DNA from: Escherichia phage AidaStucki_Bas93
Reading direction: 5' to 3' (one strand)
Sequence record: PQ850593.1
Length of the DNA: 64,000 bases
Shown one piece after another: positions 36,361 through 45,426 of this stretch; position 1 is the first letter of the stretch, and each line of letters begins with the position of its first letter. Below the pieces are notes generated by a model. The model had not been told where the DNA came from. It searched no databases and saw only the letters and a program-made list of their open reading frames with translations. A program made the translations under genes and the position numbers.

Positions 36361-37711
36361 AGATAAACGTTTTAGCGTTGTCACGAGTAGGAAGACCAGC
36401 AAGTTTCTGGTTGTGGGAGTGGATATCACCTTCAAGAAGGATATCACGATACATAATAGCAGAAGCTAAACCACGTTCTGCCAGAGCTTTCTTAGCTGGA
36501 TTATTCTCTTCGATTGCTTCAGCAAGCATATCCCTACACTCTTTAATGAGGTAGTGAGCGAGCATACGAAGTTCAAGTCCAGAACCATCATACCCTAAGA
36601 ATACTTCTTTACCAGCGGGTATGTAATATTTGTAAGCACCTACAGGCTTATCTTTCTTCCCCGGCTTACCTTTCTCGTAAATTACGTTAGTACCTTTTCG
36701 TATATAACAACCATCAGGAACAACGTTAGTAATAACGAAAGGACGAGAGTGATCACTGTCTGAATTATAGTCAGACTCAAACAAACTGCGACACTCATGA
36801 CCAAACAAACCACGAGAGGGAATATTAACCACGATACGATGTTTGAATCGAAAAGTTGGCGTAGCGCAGCTGTTAGCTTCTGCCGAAAGTTTACCATCTT
36901 CGCGTTCCTTTGCTATGAGTCCACTGATAAGACCTAGCCTGTGAGCCGCTACAACGCGCCTCTTAAGCAAACTTCCAACACTCCCTAGCTCGCCCCCTAA
37001 CCCTTCTTCAAGAGTCTCCTCGAGGTTTGTAGGAGCTGTAGGCCACTTGTTTGAGGTAGCTAGTGCTATCTTAATCTCATCAAACGTGATAGGTCTACGT
37101 CGGTTAGGGTTTAAACCTAAACCAAACACATAAGCCTTCATATAGTTCTTAGTCTTAAACCTAAAATGCTTCTCTAAGAACCTCCTAATATCTGCGTCAA
37201 CCATCTCGGCTGTCTGCTTCTGTTTAGCATTACCTCGCATCCAAGCTGAATACCACGCTTGGTATGTTCCATACTTTCGTATATCTTTCTTGATTTCAAA
37301 AGTATTCCAAGGTTTCTTTGATACGTTAAACTCTGGAGGAAGAAAACCCTCATCCATAAGGGCTTCTTTAACTCGTGCATCTTTCGATGGGTCAAAGTCC
37401 ACGTATTCAACACAGGTGAATGCTCCACCAATGTCTTCTCTCTTAAGGCCAACTCTATCACAATAGGCTTGAGGCCACTTCTGTAAAGCTCCAGACTTCT
37501 TAAATGGCTTCATATAAGTAGAGCCATCTAATCTCATCTTAGGTAAGAGAGGGATCAGTTCTTTGTCGATATTAACAATAATCTCTTTAAGGAGGTGAAC
37601 ATACCACCGAGCATTTCTTCGGTTGAAACTCACTCCGTGCTTCGCTTGCTTAGAGATTATATCAGCGACAGTCATCTCTGTCAAAAATGGGAGAGCGTCC
37701 GGGTTGCTCAC
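36361..37711 (-). CDS. DNA polymerase (family A, T7 gp5-like), exon 1
   Basis: YDGSGLELRMLAHY (motif A) and ...LPTRDNAKTFI (start of motif B); colinear with the T7 gp5 polymerase domain but lacks the N-terminal exonuclease domain. Confidence 0.8.
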
Positions 37712-37727
37712 TTTATACTCCTTTAAA

Positions 37728-38150
37728 TTATTGGTAAAGTAAATCTGTAAATGCTTGGTTGTCTTCTACTACATCTAACAAGGTTGCTTCGTTACTATAA
37801 GACCTAACCGTCCCGTTGACAACTGTCCGAGTAGGAGAGGGAGGTGGTGTATGGTTAGCCCTAGCTTCGCGAGGTTGCTCTCGTACTAAATGAGCCATAG
37901 CCATTTGGTTAGCGACTTCTTCTCTTTCTCGAATAGCTCTCTGAATATAAGCTAGCTTCATGCCCCAAGCTTCTTCAAATTCTTGAGGATGTTTGTCACT
38001 GATAACCACATATTGACGTTCAGGGATACCAGAGCGAATCTCTGATAAGAGTTCACAGAACAAATCCAGTTCGTGTTCAGTGAGATTCATTTCGATATCA
38101 TCCCACTTGAGAACTAGGAAACGGTTTTGATATCTAGTCGGTAATGACAT
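37728..38150 (-). CDS. hypothetical protein
   Basis: 140-aa ORF. Confidence 0.4.
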   Translation of the reverse strand: MSLPTRYQNRFLVLKWDDIEMNLTEHELDLFCELLSEIRSGIPERQYVVISDKHPQEFEEAWGMKLAYIQRAIREREEVANQMAMAHLVREQPREARANHTPPPSPTRTVVNGTVRSYSNEATLLDVVEDNQAFTDLLYQ

Positions 38151-38153
38151 AGC

Positions 38154-38408
38154 TTAACCTTTAGGGAATGGGATGAGGTTTTCTACTGCAACACGGAATT
38201 CTTTCTCTACATCTTTATTCTTATAAGAAATGAATTTCCCATCAGTACCACGGAGGATTACGTTAGTGCGAGCTGTTTTTGGGTTATGACTGATTTGGTT
38301 TGCAATGAGACTAATGTTGAGTTTAGTGTTGTGGTTATTGGTGAATTTCCACTTAGCCAGACGATTAGTCATTACATCAATGATAGTTACAGTTTTTACA
38401 ATAGACAT
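38154..38408 (-). CDS. hypothetical protein
   Basis: 84-aa ORF. Confidence 0.4.
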   Translation of the reverse strand: MSIVKTVTIIDVMTNRLAKWKFTNNHNTKLNISLIANQISHNPKTARTNVILRGTDGKFISYKNKDVEKEFRVAVENLIPFPKG

Positions 38409-38443
38409 AGTTATTACCTAAGAAGTTTAGTTTGGTTTATATA

Positions 38444-42869: not shown

Positions 42870-43079
42870 TCAGTAGTGAACTTTTCCGCTAATATAAACA
42901 CGACCAGAGGAATACTCTTTGGCCTTATGGATACTGATACTCTTAGTTAAATCTGTATTGAACATAGACTTTTTAAAATCTCGAGCCTGTTGACGAGTAG
43001 GAAGTGCAGTCATGGTCATACCACCTGATGCCCACTTAATCTTTGCTAACCAAAACTGTCTCATAATGATTGGCCTCAT
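42870..43079 (-). CDS. hypothetical protein
   Basis: 69-aa ORF. Confidence 0.35.
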   Translation of the reverse strand: MRPIIMRQFWLAKIKWASGGMTMTALPTRQQARDFKKSMFNTDLTKSISIHKAKEYSSGRVYISGKVHY

Positions 43080-43613
43080 TTACACACCTTTAGATGCAAC
43101 TACACCTTCAGAGTTATTATAACGACCCTTCACTGCATAGGAATGCTCCCCTGCATGAGAGTGCTCAAACATGACCATCTGACCAACACGCATACCAGCA
43201 CGAACTCGTAAGCTGTGGTGCTTTGTTACGTTATGAAATTCAAATGTCAGCTTACTGCTATTAAATCCAGCGTCTGCCCACCCAGCGTGGAGGTGGTTCA
43301 AACCACAACGAGCCATAGATGAACGCAGGACAAACAGGCTTGAAATGTTATCTGGAAGGTTAAACTCCTCCATAGAGTGAGCCAAGAAGAACTGACCCGG
43401 AGTGATAACCAAACCCTCTTCAGGAATTTTTACTTCCTTCCACTGAAGATTCTCTTTCGCATCAATATCAACGATGCCATCAGCCTGTTCTTCAACAAGG
43501 ATAGTATCACCAATACGGATATCCACACTAGCAGCGTTAACATACTTATGCTCCGCATCCAGATAGCCATTGTCAATTACATCATGCAGTTCAATACTTC
43601 CTAGTAAACTCAT
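43080..43613 (-). CDS. dcd: dCTP deaminase family protein
   Basis: RSSMARCGL..HAGWADAGF and EFHN...RAGMRVGQMVMFE match the dCTP deaminase/dUTPase fold. Confidence 0.7.
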   Translation of the reverse strand: MSLLGSIELHDVIDNGYLDAEHKYVNAASVDIRIGDTILVEEQADGIVDIDAKENLQWKEVKIPEEGLVITPGQFFLAHSMEEFNLPDNISSLFVLRSSMARCGLNHLHAGWADAGFNSSKLTFEFHNVTKHHSLRVRAGMRVGQMVMFEHSHAGEHSYAVKGRYNNSEGVVASKGV

Positions 43614-43622
43614 TCTTATTCC

Positions 43623-44870
43623 TTAGTTGTTTGTTTCTATGTCAAAAGAGAATCCACGACCCGCTTCATCGGCAAACCGAGCTGTATGGGTTTGAGGCTC
43701 TAATACTTCAGGGTTGTTAGCAATAAAGCGAGCGGCGAGATTATCTTCCACATCTTGACTAGAGGGCTGACGTGCGCTAACAGTTAAACCATTTGGTCGA
43801 CCATTAGAACGTCTAGACAACCACTGCTCAAATGAATCACTAGTAACACCAAGAGCCTCTTCAAAAGATGTTCTACGAGTAGGGCTTACTCTTCGTGACT
43901 CTTGTGCTCGACGCATTGCAGGGGCTACAAACACCCCTTCAATTGCATTATGTCGATTAGGTTCATCTTCCCGACCAAGGAGATCACCTCCTGCATTAGT
44001 TGTTAAGTTTGTCAACCCTTCAGACCAATACGCACGAATCTGGCTAGAGCCATAAATGCTTGACATTAACTGAATCTCTTCATAAGGTATATCAAAGAAT
44101 CGACTCATATCTCGGTTAACACAATACTGAGCACTTGTTGTATCCTCAATAAGAGCAACCTGACCCCGTTCGTTGACCAGATGACTAACCGGCTGAGGTG
44201 TGGGAAGGTGTCGAGTTTGGGCCATGTATTGATATGCAGCTGCTGGAGAGGAAAATCTCAACACTTGCGAGTTAGGCCACTTCTTGTGAACATACCTGAT
44301 TTCACGACTAGAAACAACCACTGGACAAGGGGCGGTCATAGCCAAGTATCCATGAGGGGTCATGAATAAGTTATCAAGAGTCATCGCACCACGGCACATC
44401 ATAGGAAAATTATCCAATACCTCTTCAATAGAAGTAGGATAATTAAACATGAATTGGATACGAACACCATTCCACTGAAACTCAATAATATCAGTGAATG
44501 TTAATTGAGAACCCCCAGCATATGATTCGTTCGTAGCTTCAACAAGAAGAGATGAATACTCAATATCTTGTGATTCAAGCCATTCCTTCACATTACTTTC
44601 AATCTCCCGTCCAAGCATTTGCCACTGCTCGGCTGGGATAAAGGTATTTCGAGTTCTTGGTGTTTGTCCTCTGACAATAAAGATATCAATGTCATGTGGA
44701 GCTATGTTATTAAGAACAGCATCACGAATAGCTCCACCAGTAATGATAGGGCAAATACCATCTGGAATCAAGTTGTTGTTAATCAACTGTTCAATGAAGT
44801 GACGACCAACAGTGATATCAGGTTGTTGAGCAACCTTATCTTCAATTCGGTTAATCGGGATAACAATCAT
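43623..44870 (-). CDS. nucleotidyltransferase (CCA-adding/poly(A) polymerase head-domain family)
   Basis: ITGGAIRDAVLNNIAPHDIDIFIV matches the GGxVRD...DxD head motif; start moved to MIVIPINR because the track start overlaps the upstream gene. Confidence 0.6.
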   Translation of the reverse strand: MIVIPINRIEDKVAQQPDITVGRHFIEQLINNNLIPDGICPIITGGAIRDAVLNNIAPHDIDIFIVRGQTPRTRNTFIPAEQWQMLGREIESNVKEWLESQDIEYSSLLVEATNESYAGGSQLTFTDIIEFQWNGVRIQFMFNYPTSIEEVLDNFPMMCRGAMTLDNLFMTPHGYLAMTAPCPVVVSSREIRYVHKKWPNSQVLRFSSPAAAYQYMAQTRHLPTPQPVSHLVNERGQVALIEDTTSAQYCVNRDMSRFFDIPYEEIQLMSSIYGSSQIRAYWSEGLTNLTTNAGGDLLGREDEPNRHNAIEGVFVAPAMRRAQESRRVSPTRRTSFEEALGVTSDSFEQWLSRRSNGRPNGLTVSARQPSSQDVEDNLAARFIANNPEVLEPQTHTARFADEAGRGFSFDIETNN

Positions 44871-44871
44871 T

Positions 44872-45426
44872 TTACATTTTCCAATATAATGAAGGTGGGT
44901 CGTAAGGATCAAATCCTGTGAGTTCACACAAGTATTTATAAACCTTAACAGTTAAGTTAACGTCCTGTTCACAGTAAGTAAACATATCTTCAGTGAAAGC
45001 ATCCCATGCTTCCTCTTGCTCACCGTAATCTCCTTTAAGTTCCCCCAAGAACTCACCCCATTGCTTCAAACCGTGACCTCTTGGGCCATGTCTAGGGTCG
45101 CCTTTCGGATACTCAGGACTGTCACCAATACGATCAGGTTTAAGATATCGACTAAGACACAGAGTGTCGAAGACGTTAAAATGATATTTAATCAGATTGG
45201 GATATATTTTCTTCAGAGCACAAAGGTCGAAGTCAATAATGTTATGGCCCACGAGCACATCAGCTTCTGTAAGTTTACGAATCCCATCTTCAATTTGGTG
45301 AGGCCGGTAGCCCCACCTTTCACCAGTTTCAACATCGAAAATGTAAATACACCATACTTTAGTTATATCATCGTACAGTGCGTTACTTTCGATATCAAAT
45401 GCAAACACTTTCTTTTTCTTTACCAC
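44872..45426 (-). CDS. 3'-5' exonuclease domain of family-A DNA polymerase, encoded as a separate ORF
   Basis: [10 protein letters not shown] (Exo I), [13 protein letters not shown] (Exo II), YCEQDV (Exo III); colinear with the T7 gp5 N-terminus; ends in a stop. Confidence 0.75.

Follow-up and report, generated by a model that had tools for sequence, protein, structure and literature searches.

The gene 5 product of phage T7 (gp5), a family A DNA polymerase, is one chain of 704 amino acids (aa) in which a DEDDy 3'-5' exonuclease precedes the polymerase domain with its motifs A, B and C, and its gene lies downstream of the primase/helicase gene. In Escherichia coli Pol III, polymerase (alpha, DnaE) and a DEDD-family proofreading exonuclease (epsilon, DnaQ) are separate polypeptides in a complex. 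Separation has also been annotated for phages since the genome of phiEco32 (2008 record), in whose RefSeq record gp74 is a 'DNA polymerase exonuclease subunit; contains 3'-5' exonuclease domain' and gp53 a 'DNA polymerase; lacks 5'-3' and 3'-5' exonuclease domains'. LUZ24-like phages were reported in 2012 to have separate exonuclease and polymerase genes, together with an intron in the LUZ24 polymerase gene (PMC3517423), and in 2023 the polymerase was described as separate from 5'-3' and 3'-5' exonuclease subunits in all Kuravirus-like phages and also in 7-11, Privateer, Vp_R1 and BUCT695 (PMC9965538). The PHROGs database includes families named 'DNA polymerase exonuclease subunit'. Here we analyse a stretch of 64,000 nucleotides (nt) of Escherichia phage AidaStucki_Bas93 (PQ850593.1), referred to as the window, in which a preliminary description made from the sequence had noted a T7-type polymerase split into an exonuclease gene and a polymerase gene. 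The split is real, was read correctly, and is already annotated and published for this phage group. The biology itself is not new; a domain-level gene fission could be recovered from raw sequence, and our additions are incremental: the exact fission point, the retention of the exonuclease beside the primase/helicase, values for selection on both genes, the differing gene content of the gap and the early and middle placement of the two genes.

Two genes make up one T7-like polymerase

The window holds a single exonuclease homologue and a single polymerase homologue, the latter in two exons:

44872..45426, minus strand: stand-alone 3'-5' exonuclease subunit of 184 aa (PF01612), orthologue of phiEco32 gp74
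36361..37711, minus strand: DNA polymerase exon 1, codons 1-450 and the first base of the Tyr451 codon, with the thumb, lineage-specific insertions, motif A and the first half of motif B
35161..35654, minus strand: DNA polymerase exon 2, the rest of Tyr451 to His614, with the rest of motif B (YAFNYG) and motif C (HDE, aa 564-566)

The preliminary description had assigned a full 3'-5' exonuclease domain to the first of these genes, and we found all three DEDDy motifs (Exo I, DxE; Exo II, Nx2-3[F/Y]D; Exo III, Yx3D) in place: FDIESNAL (aa 10-17, window 45376-45399), HNIIDFD (aa 61-67, window 45226-45246) and YCEQDV (aa 151-156, window 44959-44976), with catalytic residues D11/E13, N62/D67 and Y151/D155. 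Pfam DNA_pol_A_exo1 (PF01612) matched at 37.5 bits against a cut-off of 23.6, and the catalytic D/E/D/Y/D are conserved in an alignment with T7, Vibrio phages CHOED and JSF31 and split relatives. Searched against all solved structures, the protein matched solely T7 gp5 (residues 3-182, E = 2e-11), and blastp aligned its aa 7-180 to T7 gp5 aa 1-196 (2e-17). It is 96% identical to phiEco32 gp74 and matches PHROG 403/38876, 'DNA polymerase exonuclease subunit'. The concern that the 184-aa product might be an unrelated DnaQ-like exonuclease is answered by its match to positions 668-826 of PHROG 17, 'DNA polymerase'; by these sequence comparisons it is a polymerase-type exonuclease, not one of the DnaQ/RNase T type.

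Exon boundaries of the polymerase gene were fixed by DNA alignment to the intron-less phiEco32 gene (gp53), which returned exactly the lower coordinate (36361) given earlier for exon 1. The spliced product has 614 aa and is 98% identical to gp53. Motif A (D..SxxE) reads GYDGSGLELR (aa 373-382), motif B (RxxxKxxxFxxxYG type) reads RDNAKTFIYAFNYG (aa 443-456) and motif C (HDE) lies within MHDEG (aa 563-567); all three are invariant in an alignment of 69 homologous sequences. Pfam DNA_pol_A matched exon 2 at 5e-14, and phmmer against solved structures matched the polymerase to T7 gp5 at 1e-32 and to Klenow at 1e-6. Pairwise searches aligned it with T7 gp5 in several blocks from about residue 290 to the C terminus, exon 2 corresponding to T7 aa 496-704. 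Among solved structures, both halves are thus closest in sequence to T7 gp5, and the polymerase is closest to it in fold as well: in a Foldseek search of the Protein Data Bank with the AlphaFold model of a 99%-identical orthologue (P0001; predicted local distance difference test 92.3, predicted template modelling score 0.81), the top 27 matches were all T7 gp5, with E values down to 1.7e-26.

The polymerase had been described as lacking an exonuclease domain, and no overlooked N-terminal one emerged: the protein begins at the equivalent of T7 residue ~203 and carries PF00476 alone, and the P0001 model opens with two long helices (aa 6-55) instead of an RNase H-like alpha/beta domain. By alignment to T7 we read these as the thumb helices. 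Because the Foldseek output came without residue ranges, the lack of the domain rests on the sequence alignments and the secondary structure of the model. Two stretches of the polymerase are insertions relative to T7 gp5. One, of ~100 aa (aa ~137-237, window ~37000..37300), follows the thumb sub-domain, between thumb and palm, and is modelled with confidence as helical; the other, of ~30-50 aa and rich in beta structure (aa ~312-365, window ~36620..36780), immediately precedes motif A. Either might offer a surface on which the separate exonuclease or thioredoxin docks.

When the exonuclease and polymerase sequences were concatenated, the result was colinear with T7 gp5, with the fused polymerase of CHOED and with two fused metagenomic relatives. 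The final exonuclease residue falls near T7 residue 202 and the polymerase resumes directly at ~203, remaining colinear with T7 gp5 to residue 704; on the PHROG 17 profile, polymerase exon 1 occupies positions 836-1069, beyond those matched by the exonuclease. The break therefore lies in the interdomain linker. The alignment to T7 gp5 that the preliminary description had proposed as a check thus places the domain boundary at T7 residue ~200, and the sequence comparisons confirm that a T7-type family A polymerase is split there into an exonuclease gene and an exonuclease-less polymerase gene, giving two chains of 184 and 614 aa in place of the single chain of T7.

It had been suggested that one of the halves might be non-functional, and we considered whether either is the decaying pseudogene remnant of a broken polymerase gene, a reading for which nothing speaks but the unusual layout. 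In pairwise comparisons with relatives at dS 0.3-1.4, the ratio of non-synonymous to synonymous substitution rates (dN/dS) was 0.05-0.08 for the exonuclease and 0.03-0.07 for the polymerase, so that both stay within 0.03-0.08 at dS up to ~1.4. Reading frames are intact and catalytic motifs invariant across relatives that are 35-99% identical, and peptides of the SU10 polymerase have been detected by mass spectrometry (PMC4281155). Purifying selection of this strength on both genes means that neither is a dead remnant; we reject the suggestion of a non-functional half and regard decay as very improbable and effectively refuted.

The halves might instead be rejoined in one polypeptide, by protein trans-splicing through a split intein (a 'fractured gene') or by RNA trans-splicing; polymerase genes fractured in this way, with split inteins and homing endonucleases, have been reported from metagenomic data (PMC2677866). 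Here the alignments leave no room for intein halves: the exonuclease fits T7 aa 1-196 from its residue 7 to its residue 180, the polymerase begins at the thumb, and neither the exonuclease C terminus nor the polymerase N terminus has sequence to spare. Pfam gave no intein or Hint match, the halves are separated by 7 kb of expressed, unrelated genes, and the single intron present sits inside the polymerase domain and not between exonuclease and polymerase. We therefore rule out a split intein or trans-splicing, with next to no probability left to it.

The layout is shared by relatives and fixed beside the primase/helicase

The region 35000-47300 was matched by 131 GenBank phage records. Closest is Escherichia phage ManiMatter_Bas94 (98.8% identity at 99% coverage), and other top matches include JacquesWildberger_Bas92, LAMP and phiEco32 (92% identity for the last). 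By sequence, the window is that of a Kuravirus-like (phiEco32-like) E. coli podophage. The minus strand carries every gene of the region, with all elements where the preliminary description had placed them; the ~7 kb that it gave as spacing is 7,160 nt from exonuclease stop to polymerase start. The phiEco32 orthologues have the same order, spacing and intervening genes.

Could the arrangement be an artefact of assembly or a rearrangement of this one sequence? Nothing speaks for it, and the layout is identical in distant families and in 58 GenBank phage records with 80% or more coverage of the region, recurring in more than 100 independently sequenced phage genomes. An artefact is excluded.

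We note that Bas94 has an additional HNH endonuclease gene between the Dps-like and gp68-like genes, as well as additional small open reading frames (ORFs) ahead of the dCTP deaminase gene (locus L001, intervals 8969..9463 and 10068..10480). These extras, ~950 nt together, are apparently missing from the window at ~42460..42530 and ~43080; the window is thus a close relative of Bas94 and not Bas94 itself.

Directly upstream of the exonuclease lies its constant neighbour:

45420..47210, minus strand: primase/helicase (T7 gp4-like), Pfam DnaB_C and Toprim_2, annotated so in Bas94 and phiEco32

The GTG start of the exonuclease overlaps the stop codon of the primase/helicase (GTGGTAA). A frameshift fusion of the two proteins was ruled out, as no slippery heptamer precedes the overlap, which argues for plain translational coupling.

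Split and fused polymerases in other lineages

We compared fused and split forms among GenBank phages and by metagenome-scale protein searches; a scan of IMG/VR with the exonuclease gave only 8 loci. The 114 best polymerase homologues, down to ~34% identity, consisted of the polymerase domain alone, and fused proteins appeared only lower in the list. All 50 of 50 exonuclease homologues were stand-alone proteins, nearly all of 154-212 aa.

The order of primase/helicase, exonuclease, gap and polymerase was found in three further lineages. In Salmonella phage PKM.Hi.22.6 (Grimontviridae), the gap of ~6 kb (L003, 14495..20446) holds dCTP deaminase, PhoH and ThyX genes; in a 46-kb metagenomic phage, a gap of 6.3 kb (L018, 3222..10001) holds glutaredoxin and class I ribonucleotide reductase genes. 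The third lineage comprises LUZ24-like Pseudomonas phages (Bruynoghevirus; 'DNA polymerase part I / part II'), whose polymerases belong to the same exonuclease-less group at 39-43% identity and whose synteny is the same: RimK-like, gamma-glutamyl cyclotransferase, primase/helicase, exonuclease, then polymerase. Unlike the window, they have no nucleotide-metabolism block, and the gap, as in Pseudomonas phage BUCT640 (L016, 5483..7405), is ~1.9 kb of small genes only. A 119-kb relative (L017, 1..10001) carries dCTP deaminase, NrdD/NrdG and a Dps-like gene upstream of its polymerase, with no exonuclease within 10 kb of the polymerase.

The fused relatives, T7, JSF31, CHOED and metagenomic locus L019, have the primase/helicase gene followed by a whole polymerase gene, the two adjoining or parted by a few short genes. 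The comparison of fused and split polymerases across related genomes that had been called for thus finds the split in several lineages and the fused form in these four. From synteny, the simplest history would be fission of a T7-like gene 5 at the linker, after which differing nucleotide-supply genes gathered in the gap of each lineage. Judged by its sequence content, the gap resembles a hot spot for integration within the replication module.

A proposed two-subunit replicase

We propose, with a probability of roughly three in four, that the phiEco32-type replicase arose by fission of a T7 gp5-like gene, that both products are functional and that they form a non-covalent two-subunit enzyme that proofreads in trans. 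An ancestral family A gene just downstream of the primase/helicase would have been broken at the linker, near T7 residue 200. The exonuclease half would have stayed translationally coupled to the primase/helicase while the polymerase half came to lie 7.2 kb downstream, and a nucleotide-supply block (nucleotidyltransferase, dCTP deaminase, Dps, thioredoxin, ThyX, ligase-Ia protein and PhoH) would have gathered between them. After splicing has removed a group I intron from motif B, the resulting 614-aa polymerase and the 184-aa DEDDy exonuclease would reassemble into a two-lobed enzyme like T7 gp5, which the phage thioredoxin might join as a third subunit that confers processivity. Primer ends with a mismatch would shuttle from the polymerase site to the exonuclease site on the other polypeptide, functionally as in Pol III alpha/epsilon.

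The grounds for two subunits are indirect: the genes are co-inherited, both are under strong purifying selection, the editing residues are intact, and the products complement each other exactly as parts of a single known enzyme. That they associate physically and proofread in trans, and that thioredoxin has a role, is what we infer. Pol III alpha/epsilon is a functional analogue of the proposed pair and nothing closer: alpha belongs to family C and has an unrelated fold, epsilon is of the DnaQ/RNase T type and not the Pol A exonuclease type, and there is neither polymerase homology nor a common ancestry of the split. T7 gp5 uses host thioredoxin, whereas here thioredoxin is phage-encoded and a putative partner. 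Polymerase aa 63-135, which the model shows as a folded sub-domain, have a weak alignment to T7 aa 289-357, around the thioredoxin-binding insertion. This alignment fits the hypothesis, published for phage Privateer, of a phage thioredoxin as polymerase partner (PMC7881722).

Regulatory placement bears on this proposal. In SU10/phiEco32, coding sequences (CDS) 69-125 are early and CDS 25-68 middle, with a promoter upstream of CDS68, and the gp36 middle-promoter motif is tAATGTATAtA (PMC4281155). We located the motif and terminator-like hairpins in the window:

42837..42845, minus strand: gp36 middle-promoter motif match, AAATGTATA(tA), in the spacer upstream of the gp68-like gene, at the early/middle boundary
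41877..41904, minus strand: terminator-like hairpin of 12 base pairs with a T-run, after the Dps-like gene
38450..38473, minus strand: terminator-like hairpin of 10 base pairs with a T-run, after a 105-aa ORF just downstream of the TAATGTATA promoter motif

Other minus-strand matches to the gp36 motif lie at 38839..38831 and 33328..33320. Upstream of the first motif (42845..42837) are the primase/helicase, exonuclease, nucleotidyltransferase and dCTP deaminase genes, and downstream of it is the polymerase gene. By position, and with consensus matches read through the relatives, the exonuclease would belong to the early class and the polymerase to the middle class.

Several observations weigh against the two-subunit proposal. 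The two genes fall by position into different temporal classes with two terminator-like hairpins between them, so that co-transcription does not enforce the stoichiometry of exonuclease and polymerase. The literature that we searched held no biochemistry of exonuclease-polymerase binding, and no biochemical proof that a family A polymerase proofreads through a separately encoded T7-type exonuclease or that thioredoxin completes such a holoenzyme. Our search of solved structures yielded no stand-alone exonuclease subunit of this family. The Rfam RF00028 match of the intron, over the full model length at 43.9 bits (E = 2.1e-9), is below the gathering score of 50.

The different transcription classes, the hairpins between the two genes and the same lack of binding data in the literature searched would suit an independent nuclease descended from a polymerase exonuclease domain, which might degrade host DNA, take part in recombination or cleave nucleotide signals as an anti-defence function and leave the polymerase without proofreading, as in the family A polymerases Taq and Pol theta. 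However, in every locus examined that extends far enough, the exonuclease-less polymerase is accompanied by the exonuclease, which is still attached to the primase/helicase gene, where fused relatives have the whole polymerase. Every DEDDy residue typical of primer-end editing is kept, and the exonuclease C-terminal tail and the polymerase N terminus are the two sides of the T7 interdomain linker. We consider an independent nuclease unlikely.

A further step beyond the two-subunit replicase would be that the split is used and not just tolerated. The exonuclease would come from an early host sigma-70 unit with the primase/helicase and the polymerase from a middle unit, so the ratio of proofreading to polymerase, and hence fidelity, could shift during infection. 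The break point would be a preferred parking site for modules of deoxynucleoside triphosphate (dNTP) supply that differ between lineages, and dNTP supply would be coupled physically or by regulation to the replicase as a 'dNTP factory plus replicase', with the phage thioredoxin as processivity subunit. This is speculative, and we would give it long odds. A naturally modular T7-like polymerase with a detachable exonuclease could serve as an enzyme tool.

A probable group I intron interrupts motif B

Between the polymerase exons we identified an intron with a gene of its own, both of which are absent from phiEco32:

35655..36360, minus strand: probable group I intron of 706 nt (Rfam RF00028, below the gathering score; phiEco32 alignment)
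35739..36251, minus strand: endonuclease VII-type (HNH-like) homing endonuclease candidate of 170 aa (Pfam Endonuclease_7, 1.5e-23; PHROG 307/2914)

The intron is inserted after the first base of the codon for Tyr451 in motif B, which aligns with T7 Tyr526. A U precedes the 5' splice site, the last intron base is G, and removal restores the ORF; the Bas94 record annotates the same joined polymerase CDS. As read from the sequence, exon UAUCU could pair with intron GGAUA (P1), with a U.G wobble at the splice site, and we take the intron to be probably self-splicing.

Among 50,697 GenBank phage records, the intron occurs at high identity solely in Bas94. Partial DNA similarity (67-80%) links it to elements annotated in or beside the polymerase genes of T7-like phages (Klebsiella phages, Salmonella phage Vi06, Yersinia phages Berlin and Yepe2) and of Aeromonas phage MQM1. 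At the same codon (aa 449/450), the PKM.Hi.22.6 polymerase gene has a different interruption of 611 nt (L003, 21787..22397), whose group I match is weaker, and the motif B tyrosine therefore looks like a recurrently invaded site. Polymerase introns of T7-like phages are likewise group I introns in a conserved polymerase motif region with an endonuclease gene; the host gene differs, being here an exonuclease-less polymerase. Pf-WMP3 offers a published case of a group I intron in a DNA polymerase gene (PMC3428280).

Genes in the gap and elsewhere in the window

The preliminary description had named six unrelated genes between exonuclease and polymerase. All six were recovered, the nucleotidyltransferase by PHROG 12715 and the five others by Pfam, together with a ligase-domain protein:

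43623..44927, minus strand: nucleotidyltransferase, homologue of phiEco32 gp73 (PHROG 12715, 1.6e-227), first gene of the gap
43080..43613, minus strand: dCTP deaminase (Pfam DCD, 3.6e-34)
41912..42523, minus strand: Dps/ferritin-like DNA-binding protein (Pfam Ferritin, 3.2e-7; phiEco32 gp67 carries the note 'member of the Dps family')
41390..41665, minus strand: phage thioredoxin with a CAPC active site (Pfam Thioredoxin, 3.5e-13), candidate processivity partner of the T7-like polymerase
40718..41374, minus strand: ThyX flavin-dependent thymidylate synthase (Pfam Thy1, 8.9e-44)
40359..40715, minus strand: NAD-dependent DNA ligase Ia (NAD+-binding) domain alone, 118 aa (Pfam Nlig-Ia, 2.5e-35)
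39212..39955, minus strand: PhoH-like ATPase (Pfam PhoH, 1.6e-56)

The nucleotidyltransferase had no match in Pfam and is confined to Kuravirus-like coliphages (97 records). Judging by the phiEco32 start, its translation probably begins at the ATG at ~44870, in an overlap with the exonuclease stop. Its C terminus, GFSFDIETNN* (43623..43652, minus strand), is very similar to Exo I in the exonuclease gene that lies upstream. We considered two origins for this tail, a leftover second exonuclease and the recombination event behind the split, and rejected both, as the codons differ at synonymous sites and phiEco32 has ISFEIDENN* there; the look-alike is probably a chance resemblance in an acidic tail. 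The stand-alone ligase Ia protein is annotated 'DNA ligase' in relatives despite having no adenylation domain.

Inside the polymerase gene we observed a perfect extended sigma-70 consensus, TTGACA-N14-TG-N-TATAAT, at 37656..37684 (minus strand; polymerase codons 10-19), in the same direction as the gene. It is the sole perfect match in the 64-kb window, where 0.01 would be expected, and it recurs unchanged in Bas94, phiEco32 and three IMG/VR relatives. Where aa identity falls to 87%, the -35 element degrades, and TGaTATAAT is kept despite dS >1.3, including the Ile codon ATA, which is rare in E. coli. The element, which goes without mention in the SU10 paper (PMC4281155), could by its sequence be an internal promoter or an origin-priming promoter.

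Two further genes on the minus strand may belong to the replication machinery:

29149..30018, minus strand: separate 5'-3' exonuclease (FEN-like), 48% identical to the annotated exonuclease of Salmonella phage PKM.Hi.22.6
32515..33261, minus strand: 248-aa protein (PHROG 6599, unknown function; no Pfam match) with an acidic tail and terminal Phe (...YEDDNDSPF)

The tail of the 248-aa protein resembles the C-terminal tail with which the T7 gp2.5 single-strand-binding protein contacts the polymerase, and from its sequence the protein may be the single-strand-binding protein of the phage. The FEN-like gene has a weak Pfam 5_3_exonuc_N match (26.4 bits, under the cut-off); with it, a third Pol I-type activity is found on its own polypeptide, and a separate 5'-3' exonuclease has been described for phage YF01 (PMC9965538).

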